6,336 nucleotides of DNA from a virus. Its lineage: Duplodnaviria; Heunggongvirae; Uroviricota; Caudoviricetes. Below the pieces are notes generated by a model, which did not search any database, was not told the origin of the DNA, and worked only from the letters and a program-made list of their open reading frames with translations. The DNA is taken from IMG/VR virus record IMGVR_UViG_3300029749_000251, positions 1 to 6,336 of that record, one strand, 5' to 3'. The position numbers and the translations under genes are program-made. Within the stretch, counting starts at the first letter, position 1; every line of letters begins with the position of its first letter. Positions 1-6,336 of the stretch are shown here, piece by piece.

Positions 1-699
1 ACTTCAGCGGGTAGTCATCAAACTCACCATAACGAGCATCGTTGATGATGTATGCGATCACCACAAATATCACATCTGGACTAGTTCCGTCTTCATGCGC
101 AGGTATCTGTTCACGCCTCCCTTTCTGCAAATCCTAAAGATGAGATTTTGGGGTTTTGGGATATCTTTTTCTCCTCAGTTCTCTATCCATTCTACAAAGC
201 AGTAATGAACCATCACTATGTGAAAGTGAGGCATCCGCTACATTAAGCGCAGAGAAATGATGCAGTGGTGGGCGGACTGGCTTGATGAAAAGGTGGAGTG
301 AACCACCTTAGCTATCGAATGACACAAAGCCTTGTAATCCAGTGCAAAGTCTTGTGTGCCTCAGTTTTGTCTAAGCGTTCTACTGAAACATAGTAAAATC
401 GATAACGGCTGGAGATCATTCAATATCCGCACTATTGACTCCCCTCCAATAAACCGTGTAACGTACACCGTTTATAAGACAACCAAACAATAATAGAGCG
501 AGTGAAATCATCAGTCTCAAATACCATTTATTGACGCAATACTATCCAGTTCTGAACTAAATGACATAATTCGGTAATTAAATTAATGCATCGACATACC
601 TTATAGATACGCCCCAATAATATAATGCTAATCCTCTTTGAATAGAAAACGTTCAATACTCCTCACTAAATAGCATAGTATTTATATCTTCCCTTACAA

Positions 700-891
700 A
701 AAAAATTAAGGCATAATAATAAGCTTCCTTTAACGCTAGATATTGAGGTTTGTATGTATCGCAGCATCGCAGCATTTAACACATTTTGCTTTTCATTGGT
801 ATTTATTTCATTAGCAAATGATATATATTACCAATTAAAACACTCGTCATCTCTCAATACATATATTTCCTATGCATTTTGAGGGATTGCC
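700..891 (+). promoter_or_regulatory. AT-rich upstream/promoter region and RBS of the membrane-protein gene
   Basis: GAGGGA at 881-886 lies 5 nt before the ATG at 892. The preceding DNA is very AT-rich, with A/T tracts and TATA-like hexamers. Short tandem repeats are present (ATCGCAGC x2 at 758-773, TGTA x2 at 751-758). The exact -35/-10 could not be assigned confidently. Confidence 0.4.
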
Positions 892-1971
892 ATGACATAC
901 AATACTATATTCAAAATATACATCTCAATTTTCATTTCTGTTATTGTCACTATAATAGCCATATCCGGTATAACATTCCTGGGGGACAACTGGATTATTC
1001 CAGACACATATCATCTATTTAATACTGCAAAATATGATACCACATTTTCACTCAGCGATATTTATTCCCAGCATAAAACATCTGTTTTATTTCTCTTTAT
1101 AAACAAAGTGCTCTATAGCATAGGGTTATATTCTTTCTGTATCGCGAACACAGCAATGATTATCTATGCTTTTTTCAAACATCACGAAGACCGTAGATTT
1201 TGTTTTGTGTTTTTGGTTTTGTCACCTCTATTTTTCATTAATATACCGTTACCATCCAAAGATATAATGGTGACATTTCTTTTTTGCATATGGGTATATG
1301 CAGTTTACTCTGAGGCAAGCCTGACAAAAACAATCCTGCTGTCTTTAATCATCCTATTAGTTAGAGATGGCTTTGGGATAATTTTAATTGCCACTTCAAT
1401 TATCTTAAAACAAAAGATAATATATAAAGCACCAATACTACTGATTATAATAGCAACTCTCATCGCATCTTTAATATCGGATGTTTTGCCTAACTATGCA
1501 AATGACTTTTTTCTGTTCCAGAGAGTAATTGATATAGCCAATGAATATAATAGTTCAAGTTATATTCTTCGTATATTTGGGAATGTAACAAATTTCTCAT
1601 CACGCAACCCATTGATTACTGATAAGTCCACATTAAACATTACATTTATGTGCTATACAATCACGGGAGTTACTATATTGAGTACATTCCTTCTTTCAAT
1701 TAAAGCAATACGTTCAAATTATAAAAGTGATGTCAGAATATCATTTTGTTATTTTTTAATTACCATTGCTTTTTCTATTTCACCACTTATTCAAGCAAGA
1801 TACATGGCTCCGTTAATTTTAATGCCGACATTTTATAAGTGTATTTCAAAAAAAGATGTCTTTATTTGCTATATGGCAAGCATATTTATCTCAATAATAT
1901 TATCATTATTATATGTATATTTAGGTGTTTACCCTGAAAAAGCACCAGTGGAAAACTTTACAATAAATTAA
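892..1971 (+). CDS. Polytopic inner-membrane protein, probably horizontally acquired surface-polysaccharide modification function (Wzy/EpsG-like polymerase or serotype-converting transferase candidate)
   Basis: 359-aa ORF with a good RBS. The translation is dominated by I/L/F/Y-rich hydrophobic segments consistent with about 9-11 transmembrane helices. Very low GC and AT-rich codon usage are typical of wzy/gtr-type cargo genes. It occupies the position that the serotype-specific gtr gene (yfdI) holds in CPS-53, but is shorter and has no gtrA/gtrB upstream in the window. Function is inferred from composition and topology only. Confidence 0.75.
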   Translation: MTYNTIFKIYISIFISVIVTIIAISGITFLGDNWIIPDTYHLFNTAKYDTTFSLSDIYSQHKTSVLFLFINKVLYSIGLYSFCIANTAMIIYAFFKHHEDRRFCFVFLVLSPLFFINIPLPSKDIMVTFLFCIWVYAVYSEASLTKTILLSLIILLVRDGFGIILIATSIILKQKIIYKAPILLIIIATLIASLISDVLPNYANDFFLFQRVIDIANEYNSSSYILRIFGNVTNFSSRNPLITDKSTLNITFMCYTITGVTILSTFLLSIKAIRSNYKSDVRISFCYFLITIAFSISPLIQARYMAPLILMPTFYKCISKKDVFICYMASIFISIILSLLYVYLGVYPEKAPVENFTIN

Positions 1972-1990
1972 CAAGAGAAAACCACCTATG

Positions 1991-2036
1991 GCACCATCTC
2001 ACAATAATAATATGATAAACATATTAGAGATGGTGC
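1991..2036. repeat. Perfect 10-bp inverted repeat (GCACCATCTC ... GAGATGGTGC) with a 26-nt AT-rich spacer, in the intergenic gap between convergent genes
   Basis: Read directly: 1991-2000 is the reverse complement of 2027-2036. No U-tract follows on either strand, so it is not a classical intrinsic terminator; it may be a protein-binding site or a weak bidirectional stop. Confidence 0.5.
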
Positions 2037-2089
2037 TACTCCGAGCCACCCACAAGCAACACATTGAATTTATTCCAAAATAATTCATC

Positions 2090-2683
2090 TTATACTTCAT
2101 AAAGGGCAGGCCAGATGACATCAGGCGCGGTGCTGGTATCTGTTGCCGCCACCGCGTCAATGTAATCCAGCACAGCGTTAAGCCGGGTGGTTTCTGCCTG
2201 CGTCAGCTTCCGCCCGGCCTGTAATTTCAGCTGAATCAGACTGATGGAAGCCATTGCAGCATCAATCAGCGACTGGCGCTTTACTTCTGCCGCGTCTAGT
2301 GCGGCGCTATGCTGTGCCTCGGTATCCGTCACCCATTTCTCACCATCCCATTTATCGTATGGCGTTAACGGTGAAAGCGTGACATAACCGTCTTTGATGG
2401 CACCGATATAATCCACTGTAACAGCTACGCCATTTTCTGTTGAGTAAACAGTCTCATTGCGATGGTCTTCTTCATGGCTCCATCCCTTACCCGTAAATAC
2501 TGCCACTCTTCCCGGAATGTATTCGCCCGGGTCAATACCAGTGGAACAGGCGGGCATACTTACGCCAGTATTAATATATTCATCAGACCAGCCAGTATAT
2601 TCATACGTAACTGCCTCATAATAAAAACAACGCATATTACCCGGTACTGTAGCCAGCCCATTTTCATCAAAAACAGGTTTCAT
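2090..2683 (-). CDS. Phage tail-fibre assembly protein (Tfa family)
   Basis: 197-aa ORF. The central EDHRNETVY motif and the C-terminal TSTAPDVIWP motif match the conserved pattern of lambdoid Tfa proteins (TfaE/TfaQ/yfdK-like) as I remember them. Its start overlaps the stop of the upstream tail-fibre remnant (TAATG coupling), as in stf-tfa pairs. Confidence 0.88.
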   Translation of the reverse strand: MKPVFDENGLATVPGNMRCFYYEAVTYEYTGWSDEYINTGVSMPACSTGIDPGEYIPGRVAVFTGKGWSHEEDHRNETVYSTENGVAVTVDYIGAIKDGYVTLSPLTPYDKWDGEKWVTDTEAQHSAALDAAEVKRQSLIDAAMASISLIQLKLQAGRKLTQAETTRLNAVLDYIDAVAATDTSTAPDVIWPALYEV

Positions 2684-3009
2684 TATGCAGCCCTCACAAT
2701 ATAATTAAAGGCGATGTTACGTGGACGGTTTTCATTAGCTGTTGGCACGACACGAGAGGCGTCGAATCCAAGGTCATCGGTTTTGCCTATAGCAGTTGTG
2801 TTATTCGCCATTGTCGTTGATCGTGTTCCTGCATCGTAAAAAGCCCCTCTGATTGCATCAAAAGACATGCCGATCCCGCCATCTGCGAATCCCTCAATAT
2901 TTCTTATTGCATCCCCCTGTGAAGATAATAATTGTCGCCCGGCATCCACACCACGTCCGTCATCCCAGCCACGAATAAATTCACCGCGTAAAGTCGCACT
3001 CGAAGAGCA
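2683..3009 (-). pseudogene. 3' remnant of a side tail-fibre (Stf) gene: only the C-terminal ~108 codons, bounded upstream by an in-frame stop
   Basis: The translation ends ...FDASRVVPTANENRPRNIAFNYIVRAA, the conserved C-terminus of lambdoid side tail fibres, and contains LRGEFIRGWDDGRG (tail-collar-like motif) near its 5' end. Reading upstream in the same frame hits a stop at 3010-3012, and the sequence beyond is not fibre-like. No ATG is present; the listed start at 2949 is a GTG. Confidence 0.8.
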
Positions 3010-3191
3010 TCAGCCAACTGTTTCCTGATTTTTTCAGGTAACTCGTCGGCATCGCAGAAACAACAACGCTCGATCATGTTGAAAGCCGATTCGTAGAACT
3101 GTTTTTGCTGAGTGTCGCTGAGACAGGAAAAGAGCGACGTTACGATGATTTTATTAATTGCATTATCAAGTTCTTTTTCATCAAAAGTCAT
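2904..3191 (-). CDS. Small hypothetical protein (95 aa) with a Cys cluster (CCFC); its 3' end reads out of frame through the tail-fibre remnant (chimeric or truncated)
   Basis: ATG at 3189-3191 is preceded by AGGA at appropriate spacing on the minus strand. The N-terminal ~60 aa are encoded by unique DNA (3012-3191), while the last ~30 codons overlap Stf-remnant DNA in another frame, so the native C-terminus is likely lost. I recognise no family. Confidence 0.4.
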   Translation of the reverse strand: MTFDEKELDNAINKIIVTSLFSCLSDTQQKQFYESAFNMIERCCFCDADELPEKIRKQLADALRVRLYAVNLFVAGMTDVVWMPGDNYYLHRGMQ

Positions 3192-3444
3192 TTGATTTTC
3201 CTTTTATGTATACGGGCTTAAAAGGATACCACCGAGCCTGAAGTGGTGAAAAGACAGGCACATAACAGCTAAGTATTTTCAACCAGAGAGAATCCTTAGC
3301 GTTGTGGTGAATGCGGCTCAGCGTACGCGGGTTAAGGTTGAGGCTGACAGTCGACCTTCTGTGGATACCCACCCGCCTGGTGTGCAACCTTCGCCAGGCA
3401 CCGGGAGGCACCCGGCACCACAACTTTATGCTGTGTGTAGTCTT

Positions 3445-3491
3445 GGCGGTACCAGCTTGTACCCTTGCTTCCGGCTGGTACCGTCCTTTTT
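3445..3491 (+). terminator. Terminator-like hairpin: 10-bp perfect stem (CGGTACCAGC / GCTGGTACCG) followed by CC-TTTTT
   Basis: 3447-3456 pairs perfectly with 3474-3483, extendable by G-U/G-C pairs at 3445-3446 with 3484-3485. The loop is 17 nt. A T5 run lies at 3487-3491. Three GTACC copies, two of them full GGTACC palindromes (3448-3453, 3459-3463, 3477-3482), allow mutually exclusive alternative pairings. Confidence 0.35.
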
Positions 3492-3704
3492 GCAAAACAG
3501 AGAAGAGCATCACCGGACGACGGGCTCATAACCCAATCCATCCGGGCGGCTGCCACCGCAGGTGTTCTTCTCTGTTTTGTGGAGAAACTAACCGCCCCTA
3601 CGGGGGCATTTATGGAAATGTAATTGACTCAATAATCGCCGGACGGTGAGGGCTTCCTTTTACCCGAATTCAGCGCGGTGCAGCGCATATACGTGGAGAA
3701 CAAA

Positions 3705-4241
3705 ATGTCATTTATTAAAACTTTTTCCGGGAAGCATTTTTATTATGACAGGATAAATAAAGACGACATCGTTATTAACGATATCGCGGTTTCCCTTTCA
3801 AATATCTGTCGCTTTGCAGGACATCTTTCACACTTCTACAGTGTCGCCCAACATGCGGTGCTTTGCAGCCAGCTGGTGCCGCAGGAATTTGCTTTTGAAG
3901 CGTTAATGCATGATGCAACAGAAGCGTATTGCCAGGACATCCCCGCACCACTGAAACGACTTCTTCCTGACTATAAACGGATGGAAGAAAAAATAGACGC
4001 CGTAATACGTGAGAAATACGGGTTACCTCCTGTTATGAGCACGCCAGTGAAATATGCCGATCTCATTATGCTGGCAACCGAACGCCGCGATCTCGGGCTT
4101 GATGATGGCTCTTTCTGGCCTGTACTGGAAGGTATCCCGGCAACAGAGATGTTCAAAGTGATTCCACAGGCACCGGGCCATGCCTACGGGATGTTTATGG
4201 AACGTTTTAACGAGTTATCGGAGTTACGCAAATGCGCATGA
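3705..4241 (+). CDS. yfdR: HD-domain phosphohydrolase, YfdR-like 5'-deoxynucleotidase (178 aa from the ATG at 3705; the ORF track starts at an upstream GTG at 3678)
   Basis: The HD signature (…H…ALMHDATEAY…) is visible in the translation. GGAG at 3695-3698 lies 6 nt before the ATG at 3705, whereas the GTG at 3678 has no RBS. The length (178 aa) and operon context (followed by 120-aa and 101-aa ORFs, then an Xis-like gene) match my recollection of CPS-53 yfdR-yfdS-yfdT. Identity to K-12 YfdR was not verified by alignment. Confidence 0.8.
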   Translation: MSFIKTFSGKHFYYDRINKDDIVINDIAVSLSNICRFAGHLSHFYSVAQHAVLCSQLVPQEFAFEALMHDATEAYCQDIPAPLKRLLPDYKRMEEKIDAVIREKYGLPPVMSTPVKYADLIMLATERRDLGLDDGSFWPVLEGIPATEMFKVIPQAPGHAYGMFMERFNELSELRKCA

Positions 4242-4594
4242 ATGTTTTCGAAATGGAAGGGTTTCTTCGTGGGAGATGTGTACCGCGAGATCTGAAAGTA
4301 AATGAAACAGATGCTGAATACCTGGCGCGTAAATTCGATGCGCTTGAAGCTAAATGTGCAGCACAGGAAAACAAAGTAATACCAGTGTCAGCTGAACTGC
4401 CACCAGCAAATGAAAGTGTTTTGTTATTCGATGCTAACGGAGAAGGCTGGCTAATTGGCTGGCGTTCTCTCTGGTACACCTGGGAACAAAAAGAAACCGG
4501 AGAATGGCAGTGGACATTTCAGGTCGGGGACCTTGAAAACGTCAATATCACTCACTGGGCAATAATGCCAAAAGCACCGGAGGCTGGAGCATAA
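4232..4594 (+). CDS. yfdS: Small phage-associated protein (120 aa), YfdS-like, possibly DUF551 family
   Basis: Its start overlaps the yfdR-like stop (ATG 4232 versus TGA 4239-4241), with GGAG 8 nt upstream. Length and position match yfdS as recalled. The Trp-rich C-terminal segment (…WRSLWYTWEQKETGEWQW…THWAIMPKAP) is consistent with my memory of DUF551. Confidence 0.7.
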   Translation: MRMNVFEMEGFLRGRCVPRDLKVNETDAEYLARKFDALEAKCAAQENKVIPVSAELPPANESVLLFDANGEGWLIGWRSLWYTWEQKETGEWQWTFQVGDLENVNITHWAIMPKAPEAGA

Positions 4595-4899
4595 TGATCA
4601 CTTTTACCGACAAAGAACTGATTAAAGAAATTAAAGAGCGTATCAGCAGCCTTGACGTGCGAGACGATATTGAGCGCCGTGCTTATGAAATCGCACTCCT
4701 ATCGCTGGAAGTAGAACCAGATGAACGCGAAGCTTATGAATTATTCATGGAAAAGCGTTTCGGTGACTTAGTAGATCGTCGGAGAGCAAAAAACGGCGAT
4801 AACGAATACATGGCATGGGATATGACTCTCGGTTGGATCGTCTGGCAGCAACGAGCTGGTATCCATTTTTCAACAATGTCACAGCAAGAGGTGAAATAA
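4594..4899 (+). CDS. yfdT: Small hypothetical protein (101 aa), YfdT-like
   Basis: TAATG stop/start overlap with the preceding gene, with GGAG 5 nt upstream. The translation is charged and helical-looking. Length and position match yfdT as recalled. Confidence 0.65.
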   Translation: MITFTDKELIKEIKERISSLDVRDDIERRAYEIALLSLEVEPDEREAYELFMEKRFGDLVDRRRAKNGDNEYMAWDMTLGWIVWQQRAGIHFSTMSQQEVK

Positions 4900-4948
4900 T
4901 GGAGCCATACAGCCTCACACTCGATGAGGCCTGTTCATATCTGATAGA

Positions 4949-4972
4949 GCCGCTATATGGCGGTTTATTTTT
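4949..4972 (+). terminator. Candidate intrinsic terminator of the yfdRST-like operon (short GC stem followed by a U-rich tract)
   Basis: GCCGC (4949-4953) pairs with GCGGT (4960-4964) around a 6-nt loop, followed by TTATTTTT (4965-4972), 50 nt downstream of the yfdT-like stop. The stem is short, so this is weak to moderate. Confidence 0.35.
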
Positions 4973-4987
4973 GCCTGGAGAATTAAG

Positions 4988-5179
4988 ATGACCGATACCA
5001 GCCTGATTCCTGAGAAAGAAGTGATGAACAAGCTCGGTGTTTCATCACGTCAGACAATCTGGAACTATACCAAACGGCACGGATTTCCGAAGCCAGTCAG
5101 AACCCACCCCAAATCATACCTTCGTGAAGCTGTTGAGGGGTGGATTCTTAACGGTGGCGTTAATCAGAAATGCTCCTGA
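4988..5179 (+). CDS. AlpA/Xis-family small DNA-binding protein (prophage excisionase / transcriptional regulator)
   Basis: 63-aa ORF with GGAG 7 nt upstream. The translation (…KEVMNKLGVSSRQTIWNYTKRHGFPKPVR…YLREAVEGWI) fits the AlpA/Vis/TorI-type winged-helix pattern (hydrophobic-x-x-hydrophobic, TGLSRSTIY-like, FPKP). It occupies the position of torI/ypdJ in KplE1. Confidence 0.8.
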   Translation: MTDTSLIPEKEVMNKLGVSSRQTIWNYTKRHGFPKPVRTHPKSYLREAVEGWILNGGVNQKCS

Positions 5180-6336
5180 TGTGCCAGAACAATTTATCAG
5201 CGTGAAGCTCATACACTTTGCGCTGAGCCTCTATCCAGTCGTGTTTATTGTATACTGACATTATCCCGCCAAGTTCATGACCGAGCATTCGCTCAGTAAC
5301 ATGAGGCTCGACATTCATCTCGGACAGACGTGTAACAAGCGTTCTTCTGAAATCGTGTGTTCGCCAGTAACCTAGATCCATCCCTCCCCTTATTCTATTT
5401 ACGAATCGGTTGGCTGCAGCGATGCTGATCGGCTTGCTTATGTCTTCTCCAGGGAAAAGAACATCATTATACGTTGTCATGGCCTTTTCGAGGAAAGGCT
5501 TAATTTGTTCGAAGATTGGACGGCGGATAACATTACCCATCTTGCTATGCTCTTTCGGTACGGTCCATACGTTTTCCAGCAGGTCAAATTCTGTCTTTTT
5601 TGCCAGCCTAAGCTCTGAGAGCCTCGCCCCCCACAGCATAAGCATCTGATGAAGTAGCTTATTTGACGTAGACGCACGGCTTCTTTCAATAGCAAGCCAA
5701 ATCTTAGCCAGTTCGTGATACGACAGTACCCGATCCCCTACCTCAGCGCGGGAGCCGAAGTCCCTTGGTTGGATGCTCATAATTGCGCAACTATCTATCA
5801 ACTGACGCCGCATGCACCAACTTATTGCTGATCTTAGTTGACTTAGCACCTGCCTTGCTCGGCGTGGATTATCTCTTTCTTCTTCGGTAAGCAGGTCAAC
5901 CCATTGCTTAACCGTGATAGAAGATGCCGGACGATTAGGAAAGGCGTCATGCATGCGCTTCATAACCGTTGATCGGTAAAGTGCCTGGGTCTTTTCTCTG
6001 AGAGTTGTAGAGACGTAGTTGTCGAACCAGTAGTCGAGACACTGGGCGACCGTCATGGAGTTCTCCACCTTCTCTTCAAAATAAGTGCGTGGATCCGTTC
6101 CTGAGAAATAGAGCTTTCGCAAGTCAGCAGTGATCTGTCTGGCATCCTTCAAAGACAGGGATGGGTATCGACCAAGCCCAAGTCGATTAGGCTTGCCATG
6201 CCAGCGATAGCGGTACTGGAACTGGATGACCCCCTTCGGTGAAATTCGTACGCTGAGGCCATCGGCATCAGCCACTTCTTGTGGGCCCGAATATGGTTTA
6301 CCATAAATAGTACGCAGTTTTGTGTCGCTTATAGCC
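5160..6336 (-). CDS. int: P4-type tyrosine integrase (site-specific recombinase), N-terminus a few codons beyond the window end
   Basis: The N-terminal arm-binding region (…DTKLR…GLSVRISPKGVIQFQYRYRWHGKPNRLGLGRYPSLSLKDARQ) matches the P4/CP4-57 integrase pattern. The C-terminal catalytic residues are visible: R in WGARLSEL, HxxR in THDFRRT, H/W in MLGHELGG, and the Tyr nucleophile in VYNKHDW. The frame stays open from 6275 to 6336 (…AISDTKLRTIYGKPYSGPQEV-ADADG…), so the listed GTG at 6273-6275 is internal and the true start is off-window. Confidence 0.95.
   Translation of the reverse strand, partial: AISDTKLRTIYGKPYSGPQEVADADGLSVRISPKGVIQFQYRYRWHGKPNRLGLGRYPSLSLKDARQITADLRKLYFSGTDPRTYFEEKVENSMTVAQCLDYWFDNYVSTTLREKTQALYRSTVMKRMHDAFPNRPASSITVKQWVDLLTEEERDNPRRARQVLSQLRSAISWCMRRQLIDSCAIMSIQPRDFGSRAEVGDRVLSYHELAKIWLAIERSRASTSNKLLHQMLMLWGARLSELRLAKKTEFDLLENVWTVPKEHSKMGNVIRRPIFEQIKPFLEKAMTTYNDVLFPGEDISKPISIAAANRFVNRIRGGMDLGYWRTHDFRRTLVTRLSEMNVEPHVTERMLGHELGGIMSVYNKHDWIEAQRKVYELHADKLFWHIRSISD

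Follow-up and report, generated by a model that had tools for sequence, protein, structure and literature searches.

A heavily structured, noncoding RNA leader of three conserved modules in an Escherichia coli prophage remnant

What does the GC-rich block in front of yfdR specify in a prophage remnant that has lost most of its phage genes? The DNA analyzed here, called the window throughout, is the complete stretch of 6,336 nucleotides (nt) formed by positions 1 to 6,336 of IMG/VR virus record IMGVR_UViG_3300029749_000251; it is a prophage remnant of about 6 kb that sits between dacD and sbcB in many Escherichia coli strains. An original prediction, made from the letters of the window, had described the block as having no credible open reading frame (ORF) and as a candidate for either a structured noncoding RNA or a long regulatory leader. 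We find that the block is a real, heavily structured, noncoding RNA leader composed of three conserved RNA modules: a core that we assign to the STnc100 class of prophage small RNAs (sRNAs), a predicted terminator (T) distantly related to the 3' hairpin of DicF, and a second leader element (LE2). Both of the alternatives first offered fit, the 5' half being of STnc100 class and the whole being, as read from intact relatives, the untranslated leader of an early-left operon.

Structure and coding capacity of the block

The GC content is 0.51-0.58 over positions 3201-3700, compared with 0.38-0.41 in both flanks. The block is covered on both strands by four overlapping ORFs of 74-112 amino acids (aa), none of which has a Pfam match, and the open frame is a different one in the homologue from phage ST64B, which is about 77% identical; the description of the block as GC-rich and lacking a credible ORF is thus borne out. 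Folded as + strand RNA, positions 3200-3710 reach -208.6 kcal/mol, as against -167.1 +/- 6.5 kcal/mol for shuffled sequences (z = -6.35), the - strand gives z = -2.8, and the G-U pairs in helices P4 and S1 are compatible with the + strand only. RefSeq places a "frameshifted hypothetical protein" here, and a 112-aa ORF is annotated in phage SfII, so that a decayed protein-coding pseudogene, or functionless DNA, might be considered. We regard this as extremely improbable: besides the results of the protein-level search and the change of frame in ST64B, the RNA helices carry compensatory substitutions, and thousands of E. coli genomes, as well as viable phages, have retained the sequence. Such substitutions among homologues, which the original prediction had proposed to look for, were found in the helices of the core across dozens of phages and in those of LE2 across 22 copies. 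Self-cleaving ribozymes were considered and rejected, Rfam giving only a chance-level hairpin-ribozyme match on the - strand. ARAGORN and Rfam detected neither a transfer RNA (tRNA) nor a tmRNA in the window, and a cloverleaf test on the D and T loops was negative. The features of the leader are as follows.

3228-3247, + strand: upstream hairpin ACCACCGAGCCUGAAGUGGU followed by GAAAAGACAGGCAC, left end of the conserved leader (pattern scan)
3268-3300, + strand: hairpin P0, GCUAAG...CUUAGC, directly 5' of the core (minimum-free-energy and centroid folds)
3301-3424, + strand: core assigned to the STnc100 class, pseudoknotted and multi-helix (Rfam, covariance model R1, pair counts)
3301-3309 with 3416-3424, + strand: helix P1
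3312-3315 with 3326-3329, + strand: helix P2
3334-3340 with 3385-3391, + strand: pseudoknot between AAGGUUG and the P4 loop CAACCUU
3375-3382 with 3392-3399, + strand: helix P4
3401-3405 with 3411-3415, + strand: helix P5, loop AGGCA
3425-3443, + strand: linker UUUAUGCUGUGUGUAGUCUU, unpaired and U-rich (folds)
3444-3490, + strand: predicted terminator T, 12-bp hairpin GGCGGUACCAGC / GCUGGUACCGUC, then C and U5 (folds; weak match to Rfam DicF)
3492-3578, + strand: LE2 three-way junction (fold, RNAalifold, pair counts)
3492-3510 with 3560-3578, + strand: S1, a 19-bp uninterrupted duplex
3512-3516 with 3540-3544, + strand: P_A, CCGGA/UCCGG
3520-3533, + strand: 14-mer CGGGCUCAUAACCC in the LE2 tip (alignment with metZ)
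3521-3533, + strand: P_A tip hairpin GGG-CUCAUAA-CCC
3545-3548 with 3555-3558, + strand: P_B, GCGG/CCGC
3578-3587, + strand: conserved GUGGAGAAAC (RUGGAGAAAC) at the foot of S1, possible start of a mini-ORF
3593-3606, + strand: hairpin H3, GCCCC-UACG-GGGGC (covariation)
3607-3704, + strand: remainder of the yfdR 5' untranslated region, with Shine-Dalgarno sequence GGAG at 3695-3698 (SfV homology, sequence)

A diverged STnc100-class core

Copies of the core were gathered from at least 120 viral contigs that match CCGGGAGGCACCCGGCACCA exactly, and the counts given below for the core family are among the matches listed; L-numbers are labels of the collected phage loci and viral contigs. From sequence and fold, the 5' half of the block is best described as a diverged member of the known, expressed prophage sRNA class STnc100/PasD. 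The original prediction had recognized no RNA family in the block and had recommended an Rfam covariance search. That search gave nothing at gathering scores; in E-value mode, the STnc100 model (RF02076) aligned over its full length (model positions 1-206 of 206) to 3271-3494 at 42.3 bits (E = 9.2e-8), a match below the gathering score, and near-identical copies of the window core score 39.5-45.2 bits. R1, our own covariance model built from 29 diverse core copies, finds the window core at 72.4 bits (E = 7e-17) with all helices forming, P2 being offset, and matches at least 97 copies in 70 phage loci. The invariant motifs GGUGAAU, the GCG of the P2 loop and ACCGGGAGGCACCCGGCACCA are all present in the window, the last as an exact 20-mer at 3401-3420.

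Across 89 distinct core copies, 93.4% of cells are paired, as against about 44% in controls in which the helix partners were slid by 1-3 columns, and 332 cells changed on both sides, as against at most 82 in the slid controls, in an alignment that was fitted to R1 and hence leans towards structure. None of 500 shuffles reached any of five measures. Two of the stems listed in the original prediction, GCCUGG/CCAGGC at 3375-3399 and CCGGG/CCCGG at 3401-3415, are helices P4 and P5 of this conserved core. P5 is fixed by the search pattern, yet copies recovered independently of that pattern show it covarying, with CCUGG/CCAGG in the Qin prophage of E. coli K-12 and GGUGG/CCACC in L181, L222 and L235. 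The pseudoknot, which joins the strand after P2 to the P4 loop, keeps a constant position in many different sequences; the longest complementary run between its strands averages 6.67 nt within a copy, compared with 4.59 nt between mismatched copies (0 of 2000 permutations). A resemblance of P2 to clustered regularly interspaced short palindromic repeats (CRISPR) was dropped as unconvincing.

Members of the family have highly diverse flanks and one shared fold, with an optional helix P3 between P2 and P4. Clustering of the neighboring genes, used because a nearest-ORF reading was too noisy, places most copies with a Q antiterminator gene on the upstream side (from three unrelated Pfam families) and a holin, lysozyme or nanS-p gene downstream. 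Of 85 copies, about 35 are preceded by a sigma-70 promoter of the type TTGACx-17/18-TAAATT that ends 3-7 nt short of P1, and 64 are followed within 140 nt by an intrinsic terminator. The family is transcribed RNA: EDL933 has 11 expressed STnc100 copies, one of them verified by Northern blot (PMC5331693), one copy lies 75 nt downstream of stx2B (PMC12370729), where it partly overlaps the Hfq-binding sRNA EcOnc27 (PMC12711010), and Zhu, Shabalina and Storz relate STnc100 to PasD, an sRNA found by RIL-seq (10.64898/2026.05.13.724894). The literature found on STnc100/PasD assigns no mechanism to the conserved fold.

Tandem arrays of three to five complete units occur at L021 371-991, L029 1724-2344, L066 4378-5462 and L012 2323-3352; the units of L021 and L029 repeat every 255 nt or so, and those of L066 and L012 are spaced less regularly. 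A weak relic of the family lies in the late leader of lambda, tR'-S (L129 1357-1444, lambda ~44,856-44,943; R1 12.8 bits, E = 0.008 in a 2.5-kb search). It consists of GUUGUGCUGAAU...CAGCACAAC around ACCGGAAGCAGAACCGGAUCACCA, with CCAGUGCUCUUUCC in front; CCAGUGCUCUUUCC also precedes the leader slot of the core in other phages.

A promoter or leader, a pseudoknotted domain with invariant junctions and an intrinsic terminator together make up the classic layout of a riboswitch, in which the core would be an aptamer controlling the terminator downstream. This explanation is highly improbable in our estimation, because spacer and terminator vary freely, no conserved alternative to P1 pairing is seen (a P1-terminator pairing included), complete units are repeated three to five times in the tandem arrays, and no Rfam riboswitch family matches even at E values up to 10.

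Position in intact phages

The block is found, in part or whole, in 3020 of 5426 complete E. coli genomes, at least 80% of it being present in 413, and also in 76 phage records. In phages SfV, SfII, ST64B and SKA5 it comes after cI in the same orientation and heads the yfdP-yfdQ-yfdR...xis-int operon. SfV has its early-left promoter, pL, directly after the cI terminator, with TTGACA and two ATGTACCC..ACA operators that resemble those of OR (read from the sequence), and its core begins about 660 nt downstream of pL. Phages of the SfV/SfII/ST64B type have no N gene, and the block thus takes the position of lambda nutL and N. This arrangement indicates that, in SfV/ST64B-type phages, the block in its entirety forms the untranslated leader of the early-left operon.

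The original prediction had the block standing in place of yfdN-yfdQ of the K-12 prophage CPS-53, which does not hold: intact relatives carry it upstream of yfdP, and it is CPS-53 that lost it, there being no copy in CPS-53 and only the last ~40 nt before yfdP aligning. In the viable phages SfII and SKA5 the leader is followed directly by yfdR, without yfdP-yfdQ, as in the window, and this order is therefore a natural variant rather than decay. Window positions 3594-3720 match the SfV yfdQ-yfdR intergenic region (SfV 23347-23221) at 94%, and H3 of the window therefore sits at the yfdP-yfdQ deletion junction. An apparent second place of the block in phage records is this same intergenic segment, and no second copy follows SfV Q. 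At the left edge of the leader, the 3228-3247 hairpin resembles a terminator when read on the - strand (pattern scan), and its sequence also lies upstream of different cassettes in L219 and L138. P0 takes the place of the promoter found in the main STnc100 family; the counterparts of P0 are GAUAAGAGUU...AACUCUUAUC in ST64B and a longer hairpin in L219.

The HK022 put elements are two-stem RNAs of about 70 nt, promoter-proximal in both early operons (putL and putR). The position of the block, that of lambda nutL-N in phages lacking N, and the presence within the leader of a strong terminator that has to be passed suggest that it might be a cis-acting processive antitermination element, of the HK022 put or lambda nut type, for a pL operon without N. 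Several observations make this very unlikely. HK022 itself has neither the core nor LE2, as judged by exact-motif, fuzzy-motif and covariance-model searches of its genome; SfV carries just one copy, with nothing after pR; the majority of the family are self-contained units with their own promoter that precede lysis genes, where constitutive antitermination would be lethal; phage mEp460 keeps T with only a degenerate core; and LE2, being downstream of T, cannot act on it.

SfV and ST64B also encode a C4 antisense RNA (80-82 bits) beside IsrK (64 bits) at L001 1305-1493 (-) and L003 1409-1597 (-), inside or next to a Rha/antirepressor-type regulator gene on the pR side. This pair points to an RNA-controlled antirepressor module like that of P1.

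A DicF-like terminator and the dicBF parallel

T is a predicted intrinsic terminator that appears to be weakly related, as a distant relative, to the 3' hairpin of DicF. The perfect stem with a T5 run that the original prediction had reported near 3445-3485 is present as 12 bp (3444-3455 with 3473-3484), followed by C and then U5 at 3486-3490. It had also been proposed to act as a switch built around three GTACC copies. The three copies exist, but the terminator stem has a quite different sequence in ST64B and other relatives, in which a hairpin followed by a U-run is still found; because the stem sequence changes while hairpin and U-run stay, the role of T as a terminator is supported and the switch is undermined. 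The Rfam DicF model (RF00039) matches 3432-3486 at 19.4 bits, and L181 and L215 at 28-29 bits, in alignments that rest on the common UUGGCGGUAYCAG...CCGCCCUUUUU. The context also agrees with that of DicF, a GGCGGUAYCAG... terminator in an early-left operon that is repressor controlled in the intact relatives; the repressor is absent from the window. Ahead of the terminator, UGCUGUGUGUAGUCUU is kept in the otherwise diverged L222, L181, L235, L137, L142 and L210, and this unpaired sequence is better conserved than the T hairpin loop. As modeled from the folds, the linker at 3425-3443 could offer the terminated RNA a seed for base-pairing, an Hfq site or an RNase E site.

In the Qin prophage of K-12, dicA, ydfABC, a structured element, dicF (76.7 bits), an STnc100-like core and dicB follow one another on the same strand, the structured slot element being closed by GUUGUGG...GCUGCAAC. 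R1 gives the core there 56.2 bits, and the Rfam STnc100 model gives it 34.4 bits, short of the gathering score. This unannotated core (L237 3454-3584; NC_000913.3 ~1,649,453-1,649,583) immediately follows the DicF terminator, ends 25 nt short of dicB and has a compensated P5, CCUGG/CCAGG. Ragunathan et al. described two DicF species, one of 190 nt whose 5' end is generated by RNase III and one of 53 nt generated by RNase E; both derive from the dicBp polycistron, and nothing longer than ydfABC-dicF was detected (10.1101/2023.04.14.536235). By position, the 190-nt species would correspond to the slot element plus DicF, and its counterpart in the window would be the core plus T.

LE2 and the start of the yfdR mRNA

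LE2 copies were collected with a pattern on the conserved tip from at least 120 viral contigs, and context counts for LE2 are among the matches listed. At least 118 occurrences, comprising 77 distinct sequences, were obtained. In 22 diverse copies, 93.1% of cells are paired, as against 40-51% when slid, and 13 pairs changed on both sides, as against at most 6 in the slid controls. The GC-clamped UACG-loop hairpin of the original prediction is also real, with a 5-bp GC stem, and is H3 in our nomenclature; a hairpin occupies this position in every LE2 copy, usually with a UGCA loop, and it covaries. Searched against 4227 Rfam models, LE2 gave only chance-level matches (MIR1094, E = 1.2; ar7, E = 1.9), LE2 of ST64B and other loci likewise had no Rfam match, and it appears from these comparisons to be a conserved leader element outside Rfam and undescribed.

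Of 98 LE2 loci, 94 have an upstream cI-like gene in the same orientation, at a median distance of 959 nt; downstream there follows yfdP-yfdQ-yfdR in 64 of 86 loci and yfdR directly in 18 of 86. T and LE2 stay together where the core is degenerate or absent, in mEp460, in Stx2c phages and in most Klebsiella-like loci. The 3' strand of S1 contains a boxA-like UGCUCUU, which is base-paired.

LE2 might serve in translational control of the first gene, through a leader ORF with an RUG start (M/V-E-K...) that is translated only once S1 has melted or been cut by RNase III and whose stop, near the Shine-Dalgarno sequence, couples translation into yfdP or yfdR. RUG stands directly before GAGAAA in 91 of 93 LE2 contexts, and nearly all copies have an M/V-E-K mini-ORF, mostly of 10-14 codons. 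At the yfdP-type loci listed this mini-ORF usually stops just before the Shine-Dalgarno sequence of the next gene, some 5-20 nt from its start; about 10 mini-ORFs are fused in frame to the downstream gene; and S1 of the window is an uninterrupted 19-bp duplex. The mini-ORF of the window runs from the foot of the LE2 stem (3578-3622, GUG GAG AAA ..., peptide VEKLTAPTGAFMEM). Translational control nevertheless seems quite unlikely to us, because no Shine-Dalgarno sequence precedes the RUG, the peptide is variable after MEK and ranges from 2 to 46 codons, the window mini-ORF stops 82 nt before the yfdR start, too far away for coupling, and the conservation of GGAGAAAC could be at the RNA level.

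Resemblance to tRNA

The 14-mer CGGGCUCAUAACCC in the LE2 tip reproduces exactly the anticodon stem-loop of the initiator tRNA-fMet from E. coli, with three G-C pairs and the loop CUCAUAA. LE2 variants recovered with an anchor that excludes the loop keep a CAU-centered 7-nt loop, one of them on different stems (CUU-GUCAUUA-AG). The slot between CAGUGCUCU...CGUUGUGG and CCACAAC (P1 in the window) holds other inserts in other LE2-bearing phages. Three tRNA-like elements are embedded in phage early-left leaders.

L215, 3220-3344: tRNA-like element
L197, 1077-1203, - strand: tRNA-like element
L181, 1800-1925: tRNA-like element

With the Rfam tRNA model (RF00005), for which the gathering score is 29, these score 28.7 bits in L215, 43.9 bits in L197 and 40 bits in L181. 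They have the D-arm and T-arm consensus and an insertion of 64-68 nt, within which a hairpin GGUUCAUAACC with a CAU loop was noted. Since such elements occupy the same slot in L197 and L181, P1 may be likened to an acceptor stem.

Mimicry of tRNA could accordingly be the function of the leader, the core and the LE2 arm engaging machinery that recognizes tRNA (RNase P, methionyl-tRNA synthetase [MetRS], the 30S P site with initiation factor 3 [IF3], or VapC-like nucleases) and the RNA serving as a processing signal, decoy or initiation device. The slot elements that reach the Rfam gathering score in L197 and L181, the 14-mer common to LE2 and tRNA-fMet, the persistence of the CAU loop over different stems and the similar GGUUCAUAACC hairpin within the tRNA-like inserts all speak for this function. 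It is rather unlikely all the same: ARAGORN calls no tRNA in these loci, D-loop and T-loop sequences are missing from the window core, whose P5 loop has 5 nt rather than 7, the 14-mer match was noticed post hoc (with a rough chance expectation of ~0.01), and the papers located by searching for tRNA likeness around DicF, or for prophage mimics of initiator tRNA, describe none. An extended form, in which the STnc100 class and LE2 are tRNA-derived mimics swapped as cassettes in one leader slot of lambdoid phages and the LE2 arm, presented beside the conserved RUG-GAGAAA, engages a host factor that reads tRNA-fMet, is a speculation that we hold to be unlikely. The partner of LE2 might then be the 30S P site with IF3, MetRS or a VapC-type anticodon nuclease, and the outcome might be a Shine-Dalgarno-independent initiation device resembling an internal ribosome entry site, or a decoy against defense toxins that cleave tRNA-fMet.

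A dicBF-like working of the leader

We lean, with modest confidence, towards the block being a modular untranslated leader of an early-left (pL/dicB-type) operon that works in the manner of dicBF and has been kept in a remnant without repressor and pL. This mechanism is preferred because dicBF processing and the 190-nt DicF species parallel the core plus T. When the repressor is lifted, transcription from pL would enter the leader, and most polymerases would, by analogy with dicBF, stop at T. The stopped transcript would be processed into a stable sRNA with a structured 5' domain, a U-rich single strand and an Hfq-type 3' end, while the minority that reads through would carry LE2 into the first gene, here yfdR. 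The perfect duplex S1 would be a likely RNase III site, and the 3' part of LE2 would set the translation context of the first gene. The structures, with their conservation, covariation and homologies, and the placement relative to cI and yfdP/yfdR come directly from the sequence comparisons; we infer termination at T, processing, action in trans and the role of LE2 from the analogy with dicBF.

A number of points weigh against this proposal. The class assignments fall short of formal membership: the window core does not reach the STnc100 gathering score of 47 bits, with nothing found in gathering mode, and is thus no formal STnc100 member, and T, at 19.4 bits, is far from the DicF gathering score of 48 bits (genuine dicF scores 76.7) and is therefore no formal member of DicF. 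The remnant has neither a cI repressor gene nor pL, and the window offers no convincing promoter for the block; the best candidate, AAGACA-17-TATTTT (8 of 12 matches), ends 22 nt upstream of P1, inside P0, which it would cut. For these reasons, the RNA is possibly not made at all in the window; the leader RNA of this locus and of its intact relatives is a prediction from sequence. The pseudoknot and invariant loops are atypical of a plain base-pairing sRNA, which suggests a macromolecular partner, and the proposal leaves the means of read-through past a strong T unaccounted for. Finally, mEp460 and the Stx2c phages keep T and LE2 with only a degenerate core, so that the modules need not cooperate.

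Genetic setting in the remnant

The other genes of the window are the following.

892-1971, + strand: AT-rich membrane-protein gene
2090-2949, - strand: tail fiber assembly gene and tail fiber fragment
2904-3191, - strand: 95-aa ORF, divergent from the block
3705-4241, + strand: yfdR, encoding an HD-domain 5'-deoxynucleotidase, first gene 3' of the leader in this variant (RefSeq annotation of the identical locus)
3' of yfdR: two small genes, then an AlpA/TorI-like gene (4988-5179, + strand)
5160-6275, - strand: integrase gene, convergent

The product of 892-1971 is a 359-aa protein of multi-pass appearance for which no Pfam match was found, RefSeq having only a shorter hypothetical protein there; the local GC content is 26-33%, and the gene sits where SfV-type phages have their serotype-converting gtr genes. 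The 95-aa ORF overlaps a truncated tail fiber gene (2683-2991, - strand). Because homology of SfV to the window begins only at about position 2990, the 3' part of this ORF is a recombination product; the immunity, replication and structural regions of the phage are deleted between the junction points at the 95-aa ORF and the tail fiber gene. The AlpA/TorI-like and integrase genes are convergent and overlap by 20 nt, whereas xis and int of SfV and SfII are codirectional, and the integrase of the window may belong to another element or arrangement.

Significance

These results give an identity to a block that has at least partial matches in over half of all complete E. coli genomes, where it is usually annotated as hypothetical ORFs. 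They link STnc100/PasD, DicF and the unexplained leaders of lambdoid phages lacking N as interchangeable modules of one leader architecture, and they place an unannotated STnc100-like RNA between dicF and dicB in the well-studied strain K-12. The STnc100 sRNA class was already known; the core stands in an unusual genomic position, and LE2 appears to be undescribed, an uncurated element with strong covariation and an arm like that of initiator tRNA. If the tRNA-mimic reading is true, the leader would offer a new phage route to translation initiation or a tRNA-directed defense; if it is not, LE2 is still a tractable candidate for the gating of xis/int expression in these phages.

Comparison with known systems

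The core has in common with STnc100/PasD a closing helix, GUGGUG/CACCAC, then GAAU, a P2 hairpin whose loop contains GCG, a P4 that covaries and pairs through its loop with the strand following P2, and an AGGCA-loop hairpin followed by CACCA; a predicted intrinsic terminator lies 3' of the core in both (3444-3490 in the window). It differs in P2, which is UGCG/CGCG in the window and CCCC/GGGG in the main family, in having the P0 hairpin in place of its own promoter and lying inside a longer leader, and in its location, the window and its intact relatives having it after cI in the early-left region whereas the main family is late, after Q and beside lysis, stx or nanS-p genes.

The parallel with dicBF lies in a repressor gene followed on the same strand by an operon with a long structured noncoding stretch, in a terminator stem that begins UUGGCGGUAYCAG and ends in a U-run, and in the Qin core, which is of the subtype of the window (GAAUGCGGCUSAGCGYACGCGG) and adjoins dicF. 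The order differs, however, being slot element, DicF, core and dicB in Qin and P0, core, T, LE2 and yfdR in the window; the 5' seed and loop of T are unlike those of DicF; and Qin has no LE2, as judged by reading the sequence by eye.

Like tRNA, the core has a cloverleaf-like arrangement in which P5 abuts the 3' strand of P1 as a T arm would and P2 has the dimensions of a D arm, and LE2 has the anticodon stem-loop sequence of tRNA-fMet. Unlike tRNA, the window core lacks the D-loop and T-loop consensus and a CCA end and has an extra pseudoknot. The put and nutL elements resemble the block in being structured and in lying ahead of the first gene in a nascent early-left transcript of a lambdoid phage. 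The block has no sequence or structural similarity to them, however, and lies several hundred nucleotides from pL, and the STnc100 family consists mostly of self-contained units of promoter, RNA and terminator.

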